Sequence record: ON210137.1
Strand: one strand, 5' to 3'
DNA from: Escherichia phage EC150
Length of the DNA: 64,000 nt
Below, one piece after another: positions 5,430 to 60,038 of this stretch. Positions within the stretch are counted from its first letter, which is position 1, and every line of letters starts with the position of its first letter. The notes below the pieces were generated by a model. The model searched no databases. It was given only the letters and a program-made list of their open reading frames with translations, and was not told the origin of the DNA. Both the position numbers and the translations under genes were made by a program.

Positions 5430-5962
5430 TGGGCGGCTTTTGGCGTAAAGCTAAATACTCTAAAGACTTGCATTACTTCTTGGATAATGAAGGCATAAGT
5501 ATATGTGGTAGGTACAGAAGGGATAATGAATCAGCGTCGCAAAGTAATAAGGCTGAATGGTTACTCAAGGAAGAATGCAAAGTTTGCCGCAAACGTTTTT
5601 GTGACAAAACTAGCATAACTGATTACATAAAGGAGCTTAGAAAAAGATGTAAAAGCCCGCAAGAGTTTGCCATAGCTCTTTGGGATGATCACCCTGAGTT
5701 GAGAAGCGAATGGTTAAAGACTGATGCAATCAATTATATCTTCAAATCGAAATACAGGACGACAGCAAGATATAAAATGGATGAAGCAGTAATTCAGAAG
5801 GTATTTTCTTATTGGAGGGATACAGTCGATATTGTGAAAATAAAGAAATACCAAAACGAAGTGCTGCTGGAATTGGAGAGGATTGGCTATAAAGTCACCA
5901 ATAAAATGATAAAAGAAGAAATAAAAAGGAGAACGGAAAAGGGACTGATGCCTAAGATATAG
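5426..5962 (+). CDS. hypothetical basic Cys-containing protein (178 aa)
   Basis: AT-rich coding region whose composition differs from neighbours; no recognisable domain. Confidence 0.45.
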   Translation: MMGGFWRKAKYSKDLHYFLDNEGISICGRYRRDNESASQSNKAEWLLKEECKVCRKRFCDKTSITDYIKELRKRCKSPQEFAIALWDDHPELRSEWLKTDAINYIFKSKYRTTARYKMDEAVIQKVFSYWRDTVDIVKIKKYQNEVLLELERIGYKVTNKMIKEEIKRRTEKGLMPKI

Positions 5963-6209
5963 TGAATAAACGAACACTGTTTACGTGTTTTGAAGAATGG
6001 AATGTGTGCAATGGGTCGCTTTATGCGGCCTTTTGTCGTTTGGGTCGTGTTTTGCGATGGAATAATTATGATGAGGTGTTTTATTTATTGATTGTGCGGA
6101 AATATTTAGAAATATATTTCATAGGTCGTGTCTATTGGTCCGTGGTGTTTGTTAGATTATATCTATGGATTGAAATTTTAGTGTCGTGAAACGTGGTGTT
6201 TGAACACAT

Positions 6210-6575
6210 TTGATACGCCTAAAATACGGCTAAAAATTAAGCGTATCATGGCTGCAGGCCGCGTCGTTCCTGGATTCTTCTTTTTAAAATTGGTACACCC
6301 TTACGTCATGATACGTCATGGTTTTTTATCCGTATCAGTGTACAGCCCTTGCCGCGCCTGGCTTGTACATTAATCTTACGGATGATACGGATAAAACTGG
6401 GCATCGTTATATATAAAACTCCAAAAATAAATAAACTCCATTTTAAAAACATTTATATTAATTTTTTTCATATCCTCATACTTATGTTAATTTATATATT
6501 TAACGTATCATCCGTAAGATATAAGTAAAAACAAAGACTTGCGGCAATACGGATGATACGTCATGATACGCTTCA
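6210..6575. repeat. repeat-flanked AT-rich element, copy A
   Basis: Multiple copies in both orientations of CGTATCATCCGTA / TACGGATGATACG (9-mer unit TCATCCGTA) flanking a ~100-bp AT-rich core (6400-6500); homologous to 22190-22460. Confidence 0.6.
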
Positions 6576-6717
6576 ACCAGCCAGCAGCGGCTAAGTCATT
6601 GATTTGCATAACAAGCGGCGAAAGGGATGGATTTCTTTTATACGTATCAAACAGTACACCACGCACCACGGTCCGCTATTCATTCAGTACTATGATTTGT
6701 GTACGTTTACAGCCAAT

Positions 6718-6746
6718 TTGAACATCAATCTGCACTTGAATATAAT
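6718..6746 (+). promoter_or_regulatory. sigma70-type promoter, near consensus
   Basis: TTGAAC, 17-bp spacer, TATAAT, about 50 bp upstream of the ATG at 6799. Confidence 0.55.
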
Positions 6747-6774
6747 GTTCATTCATTGTATAATTCACACTATT

Positions 6775-7981
6775 AATTTGCACTATGGGATTTGCACTAT
6801 GAGTCAAGATTATGTAGCAATGCCTGAAGACTTTGAAGACCCGCGATTTGCAGAGCATAATCAGGCATTATTCGATGAGTTCATTGACCTTGTTATTCAG
6901 GGCCATGACATGCGCGCAGCTTTTGCACTAGTATTTGGCATGGAGGTTGCGACCGATAACTACACTGGCCAGCGAGTCCTCTGCACGCAACGCAATCCGT
7001 ACTACAAGATGCGCTACAAAAAGCGTATGGAAGAGATGCCATTGAAGGAATTGTGGAGCGTAAAGAGTTCCATCCACAATTTAGTGAAGCTTGTGCGTGA
7101 TCCAGAAGTCGCGGCGTCAGCCAAGCTTAATGCCATTCGTGAACTGAATATCATCTACGGCATCACGATGATTGATGAGAATGGCAATAGTAAAATGGGC
7201 CGTTCCATGGACGATTTCTACAAGGATTTTGGAGAGGCAGCCAAAGAGGGTGAGCAATTCTCCCGCCACTAGCCAATTTGCACTATAAAACGGCCCTAGA
7301 ACACATTTTCTCCACTTCTAGGGCCATCGGTAATACGACGGGGAAGGTTACAACCATAAACGCGTTAGAAAGTGTATTATTATAAGTCATCTTTTAGTCA
7401 CTTTACGTAACAATTTACGACCTTCCGCCGTCCAGTCGAACGACTCCACCAGCAGATTTGCACTATAACCTAAGACGATGCGCCCTTTCTCGTTATCGAC
7501 CCGCCAACAAGTCTCGAATAGCATTCGATTTGCACTATTAACTATCGCCGCAACGCGCGCTGGGTAAGCGCAATTTGCACTATGGTCGTAAAGGGATAAG
7601 GTGCGACCACTTCCGATGGACAACGTAGCGATGAGAATAAGCGTATTCATAAGCCACCAATTTGCACTATGAAAAGCGACCCCGAAGGGCCGCCATTCGA
7701 TTAGATGATCTGGAATGTGTATGACTTGTTGCCGAACTCGAAGTTCAAGCGCCCAGCTTCCTTAAGCTTCATGCGGAAGCGAATGTGCTTGCTATCCGGT
7801 AATCCCAGCGCGATGAAAGCTACGCGGACCGATTTGAACTCGCCTACACCCTCGACCATAACGCCGTTACGGGTGAGACGCTTTTGCGCCACTTCCTTAT
7901 TATCCCAACTTTTTGCAATGCCTTCGCTATTCGAACGGCGATGGGAAGAAGTTCCATTTTGCACTACGCAATTTGCACTAT
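6775..7981 (+). repeat. array of 9 same-orientation copies of an AATTTGCACTAT-like 11-12-mer
   Basis: Copies at 6775, 6790, 7275, 7456, 7528, 7572, 7659, 7956 and 7970; irregular spacing; two copies overlap the start of the 6799 gene. Confidence 0.6.
6799..7272 (+). CDS. hypothetical protein (157 aa), possible regulatory or DNA-binding protein
   Basis: ATG embedded in a motif copy and downstream of the near-consensus promoter; function is inference only. Confidence 0.5.
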   Translation: MSQDYVAMPEDFEDPRFAEHNQALFDEFIDLVIQGHDMRAAFALVFGMEVATDNYTGQRVLCTQRNPYYKMRYKKRMEEMPLKELWSVKSSIHNLVKLVRDPEVAASAKLNAIRELNIIYGITMIDENGNSKMGRSMDDFYKDFGEAAKEGEQFSRH

Positions 7982-8327
7982 CGTTTAGGCCGCTCTTAAC
8001 GAAGGCTTCATACTCTTCGTCGGTCATCGCGTCGAGTTCTTCCTGAGTCGGCTCAGACTTTTTAACGACCGCACGCGCCTTATGCGTTTTTACATCGCTG
8101 GGCACTTCCTCGCGCGGCTTCGCGTCGGGAATGGGCGATTCGTTGGACGGCTCATCGAGCGCGTTCAAGGACTCGATTAACGCGATTACGCGAGTCTCGG
8201 CGGTCCGGCGGTCCGCGAACTTTTTAATCGGCTTCGAACCGGAATTTGCGTTGTAAAATGCAACGAGGTCGGCGGTCTTAGTTGCGATAACGTCGCCGCT
8301 AGTCGAGAAGCGATTTAAGCTAACCAT
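7701..8327 (-). CDS. hypothetical protein (208 aa)
   Basis: AGGAG 6-7 nt upstream of start at 8327; 5' half CpG-rich like the adjacent island; 3' part overlaps two motif copies so extent is uncertain. Confidence 0.5.
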   Translation of the reverse strand: MVSLNRFSTSGDVIATKTADLVAFYNANSGSKPIKKFADRRTAETRVIALIESLNALDEPSNESPIPDAKPREEVPSDVKTHKARAVVKKSEPTQEELDAMTDEEYEAFVKSGLNDSANCVVQNGTSSHRRSNSEGIAKSWDNKEVAQKRLTRNGVMVEGVGEFKSVRVAFIALGLPDSKHIRFRMKLKEAGRLNFEFGNKSYTFQII

Positions 8328-8692: not shown

Positions 8693-8832
8693 TTTAAACT
8701 CCTAGTTGGGAGAGGCGTTAACGACCTATTCGTTAACTCATCCCGTCCCGATATGAGTACATTATAATATAGTGTAGAAAAAAGTAAAGCACTTTTTCGA
8801 TAAAAATGCGATAAATTATTTTATCTTTTTCC

Positions 8833-8915: not shown

Positions 8916-9218
8916 ATGACTACTTTAATCTCTTCTATCCTTACTTACGACGAAGACCGTTTAACCGTTCGTTCTCTTATCGCCGCCGTTAACGCGGAAC
9001 TAGAATCCACCATCATTAAGGTCCGCGCGGTCGCTTTCGTCGGCCTTTCCTTCGACGATATTAAGTATGCCGAACGTAGCGCCATCCGCTTCGCGAAGAC
9101 CGACGACGAAGCCGTTACCCTTATCGAGACGGTTACGCCGCGCGGCGAAGCGTTAATTATCGTCGAGTATATCGACGTAGAGGGCGATAAGGCTTATAAA
9201 TATTTTATCGCAAAATAA
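8916..9218 (+). CDS. small acidic protein (100 aa)
   Basis: ORF with its own copy of the duplicated promoter; CpG-rich codon usage unlike the rest of the window. Confidence 0.5.
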   Translation: MTTLISSILTYDEDRLTVRSLIAAVNAELESTIIKVRAVAFVGLSFDDIKYAERSAIRFAKTDDEAVTLIETVTPRGEALIIVEYIDVEGDKAYKYFIAK

Positions 9219-9229
9219 CGAAAAAGTGC

Positions 9230-9258
9230 TTTACTTCTTCGTACACTAAGACTATAAT
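9230..9258 (+). promoter_or_regulatory. sigma70-like promoter, duplicated element copy 2
   Basis: TTTACT, 17-bp spacer, TATAAT; same unit as 8832-8874. Confidence 0.4.
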
Positions 9259-9854: not shown

Positions 9855-9979
9855 AAGGCGCAAAACTTTCCCTTCGTTCCGAACTAAAACGAGAAATGTG
9901 CCGACCCTTCGCCCGAAAATAGTACGTATGCGAAATTACATGCATCTCGAATAATCCCTCCCGATATTATCCTACACGC

Positions 9980-10042
9980 AATCATTCGCTTTCGAATCAT
10001 TATGCTTCATATTGTTATGCGTCGAATCATTCGCTTTCGAAT
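9980..10042. repeat. 18-bp direct repeat, 2 copies
   Basis: AATCATTCGCTTTCGAAT at 9980 and 10025. Confidence 0.4.
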
Positions 10043-10131
10043 TGTAACGCTGGAAACTGTAACGGCGATTGATTATTGCGTTCGTGTGGTTTTTATGGCA
10101 TGGGTCTTTTGGTGCGTTTTGGTACTTGATG

Positions 10132-10244
10132 AAATTTGCAGTACACTAATCAAAATACGACACATTTGGTCCACTAACTTTTCAAAGAAAAAGTCCTAGA
10201 CAGTACCGTACTATTTTGTACCCACAGGAAATTTGCAGTACACT
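10132..10244 (+). repeat. 16-bp direct repeat, 2 copies, related to the AATTTGCA motif family
   Basis: AAATTTGCAGTACACT at 10132 and 10229. Confidence 0.4.
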
Positions 10245-11837: not shown

Positions 11838-14153
11838 TTATTTTGCTGATTTCAGCACGGCTATCTCTGCCTTGAGTTCATCAATCTGATCCATCAATGC
11901 GAGAATAGCCTCGTGGTGCAATGCCGCTGCAACGCCGTAAGTGTCAACTGACTTGATATCTTCGACAACAGTCCCATCCTTGAGTTCCGTGTTTGAATAT
12001 TTCAAAGTTTTTACTGCGTCAGGAAATACACCTTCTACATCTTGAGCTATAAATCCGATGCCATTCGGTTTCTCTGACTTATCAAGGCGCTCCCAAGTCA
12101 CACCCTTGATCAATCTCATCTTTCCTAACGGGTCGGAAATCCTTTGAATATTTGTTTTGACCCTCTCATCAGACGTGCTGACCCAGTTCCCTGCAGTAGC
12201 AGTACCATCAGGCATAAATTTGAAATCTGCTGCAGCGCCTTGCCCATTGTTTATGGATATTTGCGCGTGCATCAAATCAGTTCCAGTACCTCGAACGCCT
12301 CCGAATGTATAGCTGCCAGCATACCAATCCCCTGAAAAATATGATACATACCCAGGCGTTGACTGGTTGAAGTTTATCATCCTCATACCGTTGCTTTCAT
12401 ACGCTGAAACGCCTACTGAATTCAACGGTTGCACAACAAGGTCTTTTGGTCTGAGATATGCATTAACATTCAGCGCCCCGTCTGTCCTTTCCGTACTAAT
12501 TTGATTTATGGAGTTAGGGAAATAAAATGTGCCATCTTGCGCAAACTTCCATTCTTGCACCCCATTAGATATCACAGCACCTTGTTCAGACGTTAATCCA
12601 TCAATCTTACCGTATGCTTGCAAGAATGCTTGATACGCAATGTTGGTGCCAATTTTATATTCAGATTTTACACTGCCGCCACTGACAAGCGTTCCGGTTG
12701 CAGGTTTTACTGCGTCACCATTAATAACGCTCCAAGTCGTATTCGCAGCAGCAAATCCACCCGATGCACGAATCACCCAAACGCCTACAAAGTTACGACC
12801 CATTATTTCACTGTTTGAACGGCCATAAACCGGACTTACTCGCGAAGCATCAAAACTCACCCTAATAACACCATTACCAGTTACCGGTTCTGGTGACAAT
12901 GGTGTTTCTACCTGACCCGGTACAATAGCACCCGTCTGCCCGTAGGCGACGACGCCACCAATATCCCCGTAAATGTTTGGTGCAGCTGAATCAAACACAA
13001 CACCATCAGCGTTGGAGTTTGCGGTGCCATTTCCTGCGCCGTCACCTCGTCCATAAAGAGCGGCTAATGAACCGACTTGAACGCCGTTTTTGTCGGGCAC
13101 ACGGAAAGTCGTTGAGCCATTACCAAGAGAATACTTTCCGCGCTTTGTTGGGTCCGCAAGCCAATCCGCATCAGCAATAGGAGTCAGCATTTGAGCATAT
13201 GCCCAAAGCTCAGGCCAGTCTGCGCGGTTAAGCAATTGCCCGTCTGCAACAACTTCATATGGCTGGATGTAAGCACGGCTATCACGAAGATGAAAATCAC
13301 CAACACCATAGTTCATTACACCGTTCATGTTCGGTCCAACGGTGCCAGTGTTGATAAGGTTTTCAACCCAACGTTTAGTCGCAGCATCATAATCATTCAC
13401 AGGGTCACCAGCAAGCGGAGTTGGGCCTGTCGGTCGAATATTCAACCAAGCCTGCGCATTATCCCCTGATCCTGTGCCGCCCATGGAAGTGGGCACGATA
13501 TTTTGATCAGCGACTTGTCCGAATCCAAAAGCAGACTTCATGCCCTGAATAGTACTCTGCCCTGTGCCACCGTTTGCCACTGGTACTACATCAAGTTCGC
13601 TATAAACCTTTTTCCAAGGTGACCAAAAGTCGCCATTAAATACCCTGTTGTATTCAGGGCCAACCGTTGCTGTGTATTTTTGTGAACAAGCATTTGCTGA
13701 AATTTGGATTACTTCCAATACTCCAGACGATAAGGTTGGGTAGTTCAAAGCAGGTGATGCTGATAGACTGTTCGGCTGGTAATATTGGCCAAACCATGAA
13801 CCAGTCAAAGCATTGAGATTTATTCCGTTAGGAATCTCTCCAAAGTTTCGGACAGTACCCGTCAAAGTCGCAGCAGTAGTTCGAATGGAAAGCATGTCGC
13901 CAGCCGCCCATGCACGCGCTGCAGTTCCTTCCTGTGCACGCTGCACGGTCAGGACGTTTCCAACAACGGCTGTTACTGTGACGATTTCGAATTGGAGGCC
14001 TGTCGCAGCGTCTACGATTGTCGCCACTACACGCTCGTTTGCAGCCAAGGTCGGAAATCCCGACCCTGAGCGAATTGTGATTGTGGTGTCTGAAGTCGTC
14101 GTTGGCTGAGCGAGCGCGACCTCAAAGTTGTTTTTGAATATTAGCCTTGGCAT
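11838..14153 (-). CDS. tail fibre/tailspike with C-terminal intramolecular chaperone (peptidase S74-like) domain
   Basis: 771 aa; DAATKRWVE collar-like motif; Gly/Ser/Thr-rich body; C-terminal SDERVKTNI...ISDPLGK...GVTW...GFIAQDVEGVFPDAV typical of auto-cleaving chaperone domains. Confidence 0.85.
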   Translation of the reverse strand: MPRLIFKNNFEVALAQPTTTSDTTITIRSGSGFPTLAANERVVATIVDAATGLQFEIVTVTAVVGNVLTVQRAQEGTAARAWAAGDMLSIRTTAATLTGTVRNFGEIPNGINLNALTGSWFGQYYQPNSLSASPALNYPTLSSGVLEVIQISANACSQKYTATVGPEYNRVFNGDFWSPWKKVYSELDVVPVANGGTGQSTIQGMKSAFGFGQVADQNIVPTSMGGTGSGDNAQAWLNIRPTGPTPLAGDPVNDYDAATKRWVENLINTGTVGPNMNGVMNYGVGDFHLRDSRAYIQPYEVVADGQLLNRADWPELWAYAQMLTPIADADWLADPTKRGKYSLGNGSTTFRVPDKNGVQVGSLAALYGRGDGAGNGTANSNADGVVFDSAAPNIYGDIGGVVAYGQTGAIVPGQVETPLSPEPVTGNGVIRVSFDASRVSPVYGRSNSEIMGRNFVGVWVIRASGGFAAANTTWSVINGDAVKPATGTLVSGGSVKSEYKIGTNIAYQAFLQAYGKIDGLTSEQGAVISNGVQEWKFAQDGTFYFPNSINQISTERTDGALNVNAYLRPKDLVVQPLNSVGVSAYESNGMRMINFNQSTPGYVSYFSGDWYAGSYTFGGVRGTGTDLMHAQISINNGQGAAADFKFMPDGTATAGNWVSTSDERVKTNIQRISDPLGKMRLIKGVTWERLDKSEKPNGIGFIAQDVEGVFPDAVKTLKYSNTELKDGTVVEDIKSVDTYGVAAALHHEAILALMDQIDELKAEIAVLKSAK

Positions 14154-22150: not shown

Positions 22151-22189
22151 ATCGCCTGGCAATGGATTGCCGCAGGATTTCACGCGTAT

Positions 22190-22460
22190 AATGACGTATC
22201 ATCCGTATCAAGTAAGTAGTTGTTTTCAAAAGAATCTTACGGATGATACGGATGATACGCGTTGCCGCGATACTTTATAGGAATTCAAATAAATTAATTT
22301 AAAATTATATATCTAATTTAATTTTATTTTTTTATAAACTCTTATATATGAAAAGTATCCGTATCATCCGTATCATCCGTAGCACACCAGTGATAGCGCG
22401 GCTTATACACCGATACGGATAAAAATACGCCTCATTTTATCCGTATCATCCGTATCACAC
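22190..22460. repeat. repeat-flanked AT-rich element, copy B
   Basis: Tandem and inverted copies of TCATCCGTA / CGTATCATCCGTA around an AT-rich core (22280-22350); homologous to 6210-6575. Confidence 0.6.
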
Positions 22461-22574
22461 TAATTAAGGCGCGCGGCTATATCGGTTGTTATACATATTC
22501 AAACCATAATTATTGTTTGCCTAAGTTTTTTTCATTAGATATAATACACAATACTTATTTGAGGGTGGATGCGA

Positions 22575-23987
22575 ATGCAAACGGCACGCGAAATTGACAA
22601 AAATGGATTCTTGACGATTGTGGGTTGTCCCATTTCGTCATTTGGCATTTTTGATTATTCTGCAGGTCAGGTTGGACTTGATGGTGATCCGAATCGCATC
22701 GTAAAAGTTTATCGCCCAGAGTCAGCGGTGAAAGACCCCGAAGCGATAGATTCATTCAAAAATATCCCTTTCATCGACAATCACGAAATGCTTTCTGGAT
22801 TCGAAGGTGATGAGGATAACACAGCACCCGAAGAGTATGGCGTTGATGGCGTTCTAACTGGCAATGTTTATTATGACAAGCCATGGATGCGCGGCGACCT
22901 TAAAGTTTTTAGCCGTCGTCTGAAGAAAGCCATCGATTCTGGAAAGGTTGACTTGTCTTTGGGCTATGACTGTGAATTCATCATACAGTCTGGAGAGTTT
23001 GACGGGCAGCCGTATGAAGTGGTACAGACAACTCTTCGCGGCAACCACATTGCTCTCGTGGACGTTGGTCGAGTACCAGGTGCACGGGTGCTGGATGGTC
23101 GTTGCTTTGACCATCTTTGTTTGACGACTGTAACACCATCCAACGAGGATTTAGACATGCCAAAACCGTTAAAAGGTAAAGCGCGTGATAATGCTGTTGA
23201 ACAGCTGAAGTCGCTGATCCCTGCGCTCGAACAATTTCTGAATGAAGAGAGCACCGAAGCTGCTCATCAGGACGAAGTTGAAGTGAAAGCAGAAGAGAAG
23301 GATTCAACCGAAGAACGTGAAGAAGTGATGGTTGATCCAGAAGTCAAAGCAGAAGCTGAAGAGACTCCAGAAGGTGAAGAGAAGTTTGAAGTTGAAACTG
23401 AATCTCACGCTGGCGGCGAGCTTCCGCAACTGATCAGCCAAATCGAAGCACTTATTGCAAAACTGAAAGGTGGCGCGGTAGGTGATGAAGAAGAAGTTGA
23501 AGCCGAAGTCAAAGACGAAGAAGTTGAAGTCAAGGCTGAAGATGTATCACCTTGCGACAAAGCTGAAGATGTGGTTAGCGGCCTGCAAAACAGCAACGTA
23601 AAGGGGGCTTCGGTCGAAAAAGATGACAAACCGACAAAAGCGGCGAAAGCGTCGCCAGGTCCAGCAAAAGGGGAACACTCAATGGCATCTGATTCAGCAG
23701 TTGCTGCTTTCTACGCTGATTCTGCTCGTAAGAATAGCCTCTACCAGCGCCTGTCTAAAGTTGTTGGTGCCTTTGATCATGCAACTATGGACTCCAAGTC
23801 CGTAGCGAAATATGGCGCTAAAAAGTTAGGCTTGAAGTGCGTTGATGGTGCTGAGTTTGACGTGGTGGATAATTATCTGCGCGGCGTTGAACACGGTCAA
23901 AAACAGCGTGTAGTCGCAAAACAAAAGGCTGCTGCGGATTCTGCAGCAACTGACGAAGCGTTTGAAGCTTGGTTGAAAGGGGAATAA
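22575..23987 (+). CDS. scaffolding protein (possibly with prohead-protease-like N-terminal domain)
   Basis: Position between head morphogenesis and capsid genes; highly acidic Glu/Val/Lys-rich central region; start adjusted to ATG 6 nt after GAGGGTGG. Confidence 0.55.
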   Translation: MQTAREIDKNGFLTIVGCPISSFGIFDYSAGQVGLDGDPNRIVKVYRPESAVKDPEAIDSFKNIPFIDNHEMLSGFEGDEDNTAPEEYGVDGVLTGNVYYDKPWMRGDLKVFSRRLKKAIDSGKVDLSLGYDCEFIIQSGEFDGQPYEVVQTTLRGNHIALVDVGRVPGARVLDGRCFDHLCLTTVTPSNEDLDMPKPLKGKARDNAVEQLKSLIPALEQFLNEESTEAAHQDEVEVKAEEKDSTEEREEVMVDPEVKAEAEETPEGEEKFEVETESHAGGELPQLISQIEALIAKLKGGAVGDEEEVEAEVKDEEVEVKAEDVSPCDKAEDVVSGLQNSNVKGASVEKDDKPTKAAKASPGPAKGEHSMASDSAVAAFYADSARKNSLYQRLSKVVGAFDHATMDSKSVAKYGAKKLGLKCVDGAEFDVVDNYLRGVEHGQKQRVVAKQKAAADSAATDEAFEAWLKGE

Positions 23988-59192: not shown

Positions 59193-60038
59193 TTATTCCG
59201 CTTGATCACCGTCTTCGGCATCTTCGTTGGATTCAACATCGACAAACTCGATGTGACCCATCTCTTCCAGCTTGCTCAGGTAGGAGCGAACTGAAGCGCC
59301 AAACAGTTGATCTTTAACTTTTTCGCCCAGCTCATCGATAGACTGTGCCACGCCAACTTCGCCTTCTTTGATCGCCGCCAGAACGCGTCCACGGGTGGAA
59401 TGCTCTTGCGGCTGACTCAGGCCATTGCCAGTGTAGATGAAGTGAGTAGCTTTTGCACGACGCTGACCATTGGCCTTTTTGGCAGCCTTACGTTCTGCGA
59501 TGGCTTTGCGACGTTCTTCAGCTTCTTGCTTACGCTGTTCTTTCTGCTGTTCTGCAGCTTCTTTCGCCGCAATCTTAGCAGCTTCACGCTCTGCCTTGCG
59601 TTTCGCTTTGGCTTCTTCTTTGGCCTTCTCTTTTTCGGCCTTCGCTGCAGCACGGGCTTGATCACGCTCTGCTTTCTTAGCAGCAGCTTGTTCAGCTTTC
59701 AGGCGCTTGGCTTCTTCTTTAGCCTTTGCCTTTTCGATTTCTTTCGCTGCTTTAGCGGCTTCACGCTCTGCTTTCTTAGCAGCAGCCTTTTCTGCACGCT
59801 CTTTGGCCTTCTTGGCTGCTTCTTCAGCACGCTTCTGAGCCTTCTCATCAGCAGCCTGCTTGCGTTTCAGGGCAGCTTCTTCACGCTTGGCTTGTTTTTC
59901 CTGCTCACGCTTCTGGCGTTTTTCTTCGGCTTCTTTCTTTTTAGCCAGACGTTTTTCTTCAGCCACGCGACGACGTTCTGCTGCAGCTGCTTGTTTTTCT
60001 TCTTTAGATAATACTTTGATTGCTTCGGCCATGTTCAC
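59193..60038 (-). CDS. Lys/Ala/Glu-rich low-complexity protein with acidic C-terminal domain
   Basis: About 190 aa of charged helical repeat (EEKR..KAK.EA...) then a ~90-aa C-terminal domain ending in an acidic tail. Confidence 0.6.
   Translation of the reverse strand: MNMAEAIKVLSKEEKQAAAAERRRVAEEKRLAKKKEAEEKRQKREQEKQAKREEAALKRKQAADEKAQKRAEEAAKKAKERAEKAAAKKAEREAAKAAKEIEKAKAKEEAKRLKAEQAAAKKAERDQARAAAKAEKEKAKEEAKAKRKAEREAAKIAAKEAAEQQKEQRKQEAEERRKAIAERKAAKKANGQRRAKATHFIYTGNGLSQPQEHSTRGRVLAAIKEGEVGVAQSIDELGEKVKDQLFGASVRSYLSKLEEMGHIEFVDVESNEDAEDGDQAE

Follow-up and report, generated by a model that had tools for sequence, protein, structure and literature searches.

The DNA analysed here is a 64,000-nucleotide stretch of Escherichia phage EC150 (record ON210137.1), which we call the window. 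At 5962-6798 it carries a large intergenic element, locus A, adjoining the gene for the small terminase (TerS), and a paralogous element, copy B, lies at 22180-22460. The region matches 28 phage records at 90-95% identity, all of them Wifcevirus (WFC, WFH, ECML-117, FEC19, vB_Eco4M-7 and BASEL Bas100 included), and the window belongs to this E. coli and Shigella myovirus group, whose genomes of ~68 kb plus a 3.7-kb direct terminal repeat (DTR) are distantly related to those of the Pseudomonas Pbunavirus group. We propose, with a probability of roughly 0.6, that the left DTR boundary is made at locus A, which would serve terminase as a pac/cos-like site for recognition and cleavage. Conservation was assessed across 10 Wifcevirus genomes for A and six for B. 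The features of locus A and of the terminal repeat that it opens are as follows.

5990-6205, plus strand: G/T-rich left arm, G skew +0.52
6013-6031: terminator-like hairpin for the upstream gene, within the left arm
6141 and 6192: CGTGGTGTTTG, in the left arm
6211-6337: putative outer-left binding-site units, with TGATACG at 6211 (+), 6242 (-), 6309 (+) and 6331 (-)
6302-6321: tandem 10-mers TACGTCATGA-TACGTCATGG, within the outer-left units
6342-6371: GC-rich imperfect palindrome GTACAGCC-CTTGCCGCGCCT-GGCTTGTAC, left of the core
6377-6394, plus strand: inner-left array TACGGATGA-TACGGATAA, invariant to 6392 in the 10 genomes
6396-6503: AT-rich core, 12-22% GC
6439/6440: left virion DNA end and DTR start, AACTCC/ATTTT, the junction invariant in the 10 genomes
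6504-6516, minus strand: inner-right array CGTATCATCCGTA, inverted partner of 6377-6389
6533-6547, plus strand: island ACTTGCGGCAATAC directly right of the core, kept across genera (JG024 CCTTGCGGCACTA; Gekk3-15 ACTTGCGGCCATAC)
6548-6571, plus strand: outer-right array TACGGATGA-TACGTCATGA-TACG
6592-6604, minus strand: single match to the consensus for integration host factor (IHF), AATCAATGACTTA, weak evidence
6641-6674: short right arm, with TGATACG at 6643 (-) and a C/A-rich inverted copy of CGTGGTGT (ACACCACGCACCACGGTCC)
6718-6764, plus strand: two overlapping sigma70-like promoters into TerS, TTGAAC-17-TATAAT and TTGAAT-17-TATAAT
6799-7272, plus strand: TerS (157 aa), which leads the genes of the terminal repeat
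10109-10190: right DTR boundary, 10109/10110 in two PhageTerm-based records (Ro157lw, Mansfield) and 10190/10191 in WFC

The layout first described from the letters alone, with 9-mers in both orientations around an AT-rich core, was borne out together with its coordinates. TACGGATGATACG occurs exactly at 6377 (+), 6504 (-) and 6548 (+); when up to two mismatches are allowed it has 11 matches in the window against 1.04 expected, a count that none of 100 shuffles reached, and nine of these fall either in locus A or in the second locus at 22195-22454. The 7-mer TGATACG is found nine times at 6211-6643, in both orientations, and eight times at 22195-22451, with just four copies elsewhere in the window. 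The array units are head-to-tail runs of 9-10 bp (TACGGATGA or TACGTCATGA) that are directed inward on both sides of the core, where GC content at 6400-6500 is 12-22%. An inverted repeat of 27 nt (85%) brackets the core with 114 nt between its arms, and a single strand of 6320-6580 folds much better than shuffled sequences (z = -4.7). Further out, CGTGGTGT is present at 6141 (+), 6192 (+) and 6656 (-). The strong G/T bias reported upstream is real at 5990-6205, but the repeats resembling GGTCGTGT that had been read into it form no significant motif: two exact copies lie at the locus, and 39 copies with at most one mismatch occur genome-wide against 35 expected. A scan of IMG/VR with the 14-mer returned nearly all single chance matches, with clusters only in ECML-117 and FEC19.

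The absence of a convincing gene from 5962-6798 held up, as the WFC annotation is empty there and the small open reading frames (ORFs) annotated in other records (Bas100_0088-0091, Mansfield_001, F13_0020) have no Shine-Dalgarno sequence. The ORF at 6563-6721, annotated in some records, likewise has no ribosome-binding site, and we judged it non-coding because its variable sites in the 10 genomes (12, 6 and 7 over the three codon positions) show no third-position bias. No Rfam family reached its gathering threshold anywhere in the window.

The first line of evidence is the position of the genome end. Five linear GenBank records that come from three groups (WFC, WFH, Ro157lw, SP13 and Mansfield) have a base 1 homologous to window position 6440, in the middle of the core, so that by homology a physical virion DNA end lies inside locus A, as it does in the corresponding elements of Myosmarvirus and Pbunavirus. 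In WFC, a linear record of 72,472 bp, the first gene recurs at the right end, giving a terminal repeat of ~3.78 kb, and alignment equates its first base with 6440 and its last with 10190. The three groups determined their ends independently: Korf et al. (PMC6563267) linearised assemblies where most reads stopped abruptly and reported a repeat of ~3.7 kb, and PhageTerm was used by Liao et al. (PMC6454146; 3,533-bp DTR, T5 type) and by D'Souza et al. (PMC6753283; DTR 3,673 bp). Sequence right of the junction is nearly invariant in the 10 genomes; left of ~6375 it is mosaic and is replaced in the ECML-117/FEC19 and RCIP0319 subgroups.

At the mosaic breakpoint, ~6373, ECML-117, FEC19, WFH and others share the right side and have an unrelated G/T-rich sequence on the left. 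Exchange between the two copies is suggested by ECML-117 and FEC19, where the left half of A and copy B, compared in direct orientation, are 75-79% identical.

The second line of evidence is the adjoining gene. In a phmmer search the product of ORF 6799-7272 hit PDB 7UXE chain A, 'Small terminase', at E=1.3e-32 over residues 3-147, and the Mansfield record labels its homologue TerS. 7UXE is the TerS decamer of the Pbunavirus E217, in which the TerS gene is likewise far from that of the large terminase, TerL (review PMC9611059); here TerL (Terminase_3) lies 8.8 kb downstream. TerS starts 359 bp from the left end at 6440, and its adjacency to an A-type element is kept in four genera. The phage also encodes a RepB-type primase (RepB_primase) and a VapE-like protein/helicase. 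The primase-helicase gene adjoins A in JG024, Hera and Gekk3-15 but is parted from it by ~8 kb of small genes in Wifcevirus; because the flanking synteny varies while the element remains with TerS, we take this as support for a packaging site. Given that the left virion end maps to the core and that the adjoining gene is TerS, a terminase site is the favoured reading of locus A.

Equivalent elements are present in other genera. Serratia phage Hera (Myosmarvirus) has a 745-bp spacer upstream of its TerS homologue in which repeats and an AT-rich core lie between a left arm rich in G/T and a right arm rich in C/A, and the PhageTerm DTR boundaries of the Myosmarvirus phages MTx and MyoSmar map into the AT core of this Hera-equivalent element. 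In Pbunavirus JG024 the TerS homologue is gp79, and 36 of 161 long reads start at 59,376 +/-5, where a pac site was proposed (Ipoutcha et al. 2024). This position sits in an AT-rich island (25-30% GC in a genome of 55% GC) ~600 bp upstream of TerS, and three independent Pbunavirus records, PB10, PS44 and Ab28, begin at 59,376/59,377. Aeromonas phage Gekk3-15 shows an arm-core-arm spacer upstream of its own TerS homologue. The arrangement is conserved in three genera. The arms are alike in all four phage types (Wifcevirus, JG024, Hera and Gekk3-15), the left one with a G skew between +0.45 and +0.55 and the right one with a skew between -0.24 and -0.51. Between genera only short islands of sequence are kept, such as ACTTGCGGCAATAC directly right of the core; the GCCGCG island of the 6342-6371 palindrome likewise stands left of the core in JG024 and Hera.

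An exact complement of the E. coli Chi site (CCACCAGC) was also observed in the C/A-rich right arm of JG024 (position 1455 of the analysed stretch), Hera (19737) and, twice, Gekk3-15 (16485 and 16497), in the orientation that would stop RecBCD entry at the new left end. Chi protection of a new end was rejected for EC150, which has only 7/8 matches, at 6574 and 6581.

From these data we infer the following sequence of events. Terminase would assemble at A on replicated concatemers, its large subunit would cut in the AT-rich core at 6439/6440, and packaging would proceed rightwards through TerS. The TACGGATGA and TACGTCATGA arrays, inverted across the core, may be the recognition elements of a phage-encoded ring-shaped or oligomeric DNA-binding protein, most likely TerS, with nine TGATACG units of both orientations lying near the cut at 6211-6643. 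A protein gripping both flanks could offer the readily deformable core to the nuclease, in the way that pacL and pacR present pacC in SPP1. Copy B would bind the same protein as A and stay uncut.

22180-22460: copy B, core 22262-22355, six exact 13-mers around an AT-rich core

Copy B stands between a small ORF and the promoter (22517-22545) of the head protease (DUF2213) gene at 22569-23987. It lies 15.8 kb from A, aligns with it over ~260 bp, and has neither the AACTCC/ATTTT junction nor the skewed arms. A syntenic B copy, likewise upstream of the head protease, exists in JG024 and Hera; the 37 kb of Gekk3-15 examined yielded no paralogue of B. Among the six Wifcevirus genomes B is almost invariant, core included, and exceeds the adjoining coding DNA in this respect. 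The repeat unit differs by genus, being TGATACG in Wifcevirus, GTAATTTGG in JG024 and of the CTTTTCG type in Hera. Local alignment of A with B within one genome scored 90, 110 and 128, compared with 19-32 for all cross-genus pairs and a maximum of 40 for block-shuffled controls. As copies within a genus are far more alike than their cross-genus counterparts, A and B appear to co-evolve, and such concerted evolution, read from sequence comparison, implies a shared, lineage-specific binding factor. Copy B itself may serve as a TerS synapsis partner, an origin or a regulator.

An inverted arrangement of A and B was discarded as a feature, as both orientations align significantly in Wifcevirus, because the element is pseudo-palindromic, and only the direct one does so in JG024 and Hera. 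The B copy of JG024 contains a perfect 21-bp inverted repeat (AAGCCTACTGCCGCGAGGCTT / AAGCCTCGCGGCAGTAGGCTT; 12942-12962 and 13157-13177 of the analysed stretch), each arm of which is a hairpin, flanking the AT core. This pair recalls the oppositely oriented priming hairpins of RSF1010 oriV; ssiA/ssiB-like priming hairpins for the RepB-type primase were nevertheless rejected, as the hairpin potential is not kept in A of JG024 or in Wifcevirus.

Several points weigh against a terminase site at locus A. The left-end position was taken by homology from the records of other phages and not from EC150 reads. E217 TerS showed no appreciable DNA binding in vitro (review PMC9611059), which weakens the inference that TerS binds the arrays. 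The right DTR boundary has no 9-mer arrays, and the arrays therefore cannot be the whole of the end-forming signal. Copy B holds more exact 13-mers than A (six compared with three) and is the more conserved of the two, and no record or paper places a genome end there; a copy that is conserved and array-rich, yet has no terminus, is not explained by a pure packaging role.

The properties of B are among the grounds for the most serious alternative, in which the array-flanked AT core is a replication origin that is present twice, at A and B, and an initiator, the VapE-like SF3 helicase and/or the RepB-type primase, opens the core after binding to the 9-mers. On this view the cut made by terminase in A would belong to a distinct signal located within or beside one of the origins, so that this alternative is compatible with packaging at A. 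An origin was also what the original prediction put forward, and its description of a cis-acting, non-coding site with candidate binding-site arrays in both orientations around an AT core, followed by a strong promoter, stands, but replication initiation with DnaA or IHF found no support. Iterons beside an unwinding element are a classic layout, and an array does lie by an AT-rich region here. Two-site origins such as SPP1 oriL/oriR and P4 ori/crr have AT-rich DNA at each of two distant loci, with one set of initiator-binding repeats common to both, in the manner of the two copies with the same repeats in this phage. The near-invariance of B and its core despite the lack of a terminus, the RepB_primase and VapE-like protein encoded by the phage, the finding that the primase-helicase gene of JG024, Hera and Gekk3-15 has A immediately downstream, and the folding of the 6320-6580 strand relative to shuffles all speak for it. 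Against it, A of Wifcevirus adjoins TerS and has the helicase gene 8 kb away, and Gekk3-15 has homologous replication genes and an A element with no B in the 37 kb covered. The strand-composition switch also runs the wrong way, since the top strand at A is G-rich on the left and C-rich on the right, the reverse of origin polarity; across the whole window skew tracks gene orientation. DnaA boxes (TTATCCACA with at most one mismatch) are absent from A and B, with 13 in the window against 14.4 expected, although such boxes are not obligatory for phage origins, and the IHF consensus occurs seven times in the window against four expected, which is not significant, with the single match at 6592-6604 the only one at locus A. 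Together with the reversed skew, this leaves initiation driven by DnaA or IHF unsupported, and we consider an origin at both copies unlikely, if less so than the explanations below.

A pair of tentative variants is still less probable. A and B may be co-evolving sites for one ring-shaped protein, such as stackable TerS decamers, and packaging would be licensed when the cut site A pairs with uncut B at the head-gene operon, a generalised form of 'twin-ring pac synapsis'; or the module shared by A and B may be a dual-purpose origin/packaging unit priming the synthesis that duplicates the 3.7-kb DTR. Lower again we rank the possibility that two late promoters of sigma70 type, those of TerS and of the protease-scaffold-capsid operon, have A and B as regulatory modules upstream of them, where a phage regulator on the arrays would set their timing or raise their output. 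The sigma70 promoter predicted at 6718-6746 (TTGAAC-17-TATAAT) is indeed present and overlaps a second at 6736-6764, each with 10/12 matches and invariant in the 10 genomes; each copy of the element is followed 150-280 bp downstream by such a 10/12-match promoter into a late gene, as is also the case in JG024, Hera and Gekk3-15, and a promoter within the B core of JG024 was predicted by Garbe et al., who also noted AT-rich boxes in that phage without assigning them a function. The heavily regulated promoter offered earlier as a second option is nonetheless weak, as the arrays do not cover the promoters but stand 150-500 bp upstream. From the -35 hexamer it is 75 bp upstream to the nearest TGATACG unit (6643) and 150-340 bp to the main arrays, and none overlaps a promoter. 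Other late units (TerL, portal) have no array copy, the pseudo-symmetric element has no fixed orientation relative to the promoter, and regulation would leave the genome end in the core across three genera unexplained. That the repeats arose by chance or slippage in a low-complexity spacer and have no function is very improbable: AT-rich spacers do gather short repeats, but the 11 matches against 1.04 expected were not equalled in 100 shuffles, syntenic two-copy elements recur in three genera, and near-invariance in 6-10 genomes that differ by 5-9% elsewhere already contradicts chance. We retain a terminase site at locus A, where the left virion end and TerS coincide, as the preferred reading.

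6776-6801, plus strand: a second motif, ATTTGCACTATG, in two copies that overlap the TerS start and begin a one-directional array running to 7971

The terminal repeat has further sequence features of its own. At its right end the public records differ by 81 bp, whereas the left end is identical in all five. The second motif, (A/G)ATTTGCACTAT, has eight exact copies and one variant (7958) across 6776-7971, several of them inside minus-strand ORFs (7387-7650 and 7701-8327), and none at locus B. AAATTTGCAGTACACT occurs at 10134 and 10231, close to the right DTR boundary, and ATTTGCA[CG]TA has ten matches against 0.2 expected, all on the plus strand and all in or at the edge of the terminal repeat. 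Being one-directional and near a genome end, the array may act at the DNA level, in packaging, ejection or the formation of ends. Sequences resembling GAATCATTCGCTTTCGAAT occur three times in non-coding DNA at 9960-10050, just inside the right DTR boundary, and a 33-nt inverted repeat (88%; 8770-8802 and 9216-9248) brackets the ORF at 8916-9218 within the terminal repeat.

Other repeats were recorded elsewhere in the window. TGCCGCG, with 7.8 copies expected, was counted 40 times over both strands, for the most part within genes, and few 9-mers of the genome are more frequent than the related AGCGCGGCA and GCGCGGCAA; the excess may reflect a modification or primase site or a codon effect. The early-gene region holds a 38-nt direct repeat (89%; 1033-1070 and 2546-2583), and tandem repeats with a spacing of 99 nt lie at 59608-59828 inside a minus-strand gene annotated as TolA-like in FEC19.

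The start of the DTR and the TerS annotation are already known from individual GenBank records, and the 'AT-rich boxes' of JG024 were noted by Garbe et al. In the literature searched we came upon no account of an array-core-array arrangement at the terminus, of its conservation across genera with different packaging modes or of a co-evolving second copy, and the Pbunavirus papers searched connect the two loci neither with one another nor with TerS or the terminus. Locus A offers a sharply defined left DTR boundary with symmetric arrays and TerS adjoining, alongside a right boundary that differs in sequence. The Pbunavirus relatives, which have a homologous site and terminase and are reported to package by headful, provide a natural experiment on a pac site versus a precise-end site. 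The group has a solved TerS homologue (7UXE) and a synthetic reboot system (vB_Eco4M-7, PMC11074155), and BASEL phages Bas98-101 grow on an E. coli K-12 derivative without cryptic prophages and with its O-antigen restored. A co-evolving B that is never an end implies an additional function for the shared DNA-binding factor. If true, the synapsis or the dual origin/packaging reading would open a way into the formation of long direct terminal repeats.

Among known systems, the closest likeness of locus A is to SPP1 pacL-pacC-pacR and to P1 pac, whose hexamer arrays flank the cut on both sides: each is a site of ~200-300 bp by the TerS gene, with repeats on both sides of the cut and an AT-rich or bendable middle, and the array-cut-array layout of A spans ~260 bp. 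SPP1 and P1 package by headful with imprecise later cuts, whereas Wifcevirus has precise ends, a 3.7-kb DTR and a second, different boundary at ~10109-10190; their repeat units are unrelated in sequence to those of A, which also has a second full array copy 15.8 kb away. With the origins of SPP1 and P4 and with RSF1010 oriV, A and B share the presence of the same repeats at two distant loci by AT-rich DNA, in a phage with a RepB-type primase and a VapE-like helicase, but none of those origins coincides with a genome terminus, unlike A. The T7/T3 concatemer junction and T5 resemble Wifcevirus in having fixed ends and a direct terminal repeat, and in T7 arrays of short repeats adjoin the repeat boundaries; the T7 repeat is 160 bp long, and the terminase (Terminase_3 TerL with an E217-type decameric TerS) and motifs found here are unrelated to those of such phages. 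The mechanism by which long terminal repeats are made has been stated to be unknown (Casjens and Gilcrease, cited in PMC6454146). For T4, a 'twin-ring pac synapsis' has been proposed in which two homologous TerS targets, in genes 16 and 19, are paired by stacked TerS rings, and ring stacking has also been proposed for the C-terminal helix of E217 TerS (PMC9611059). The T4 pac-like sites are short and intragenic, unlike A and B, and the same review regards the model as possibly limited to T4. Pbunavirus differs from Wifcevirus in its repeat unit (GTAATTTGG compared with TGATACG) and is reported to be circularly permuted and not to have a DTR, yet its AT-rich boxes and conserved intergenic motifs (Garbe 2010; Ceyssens 2009), together with the putative JG024 pac site at 59,376, are orthologous to A and B, occupying the same positions and sharing the AT core and the short islands.

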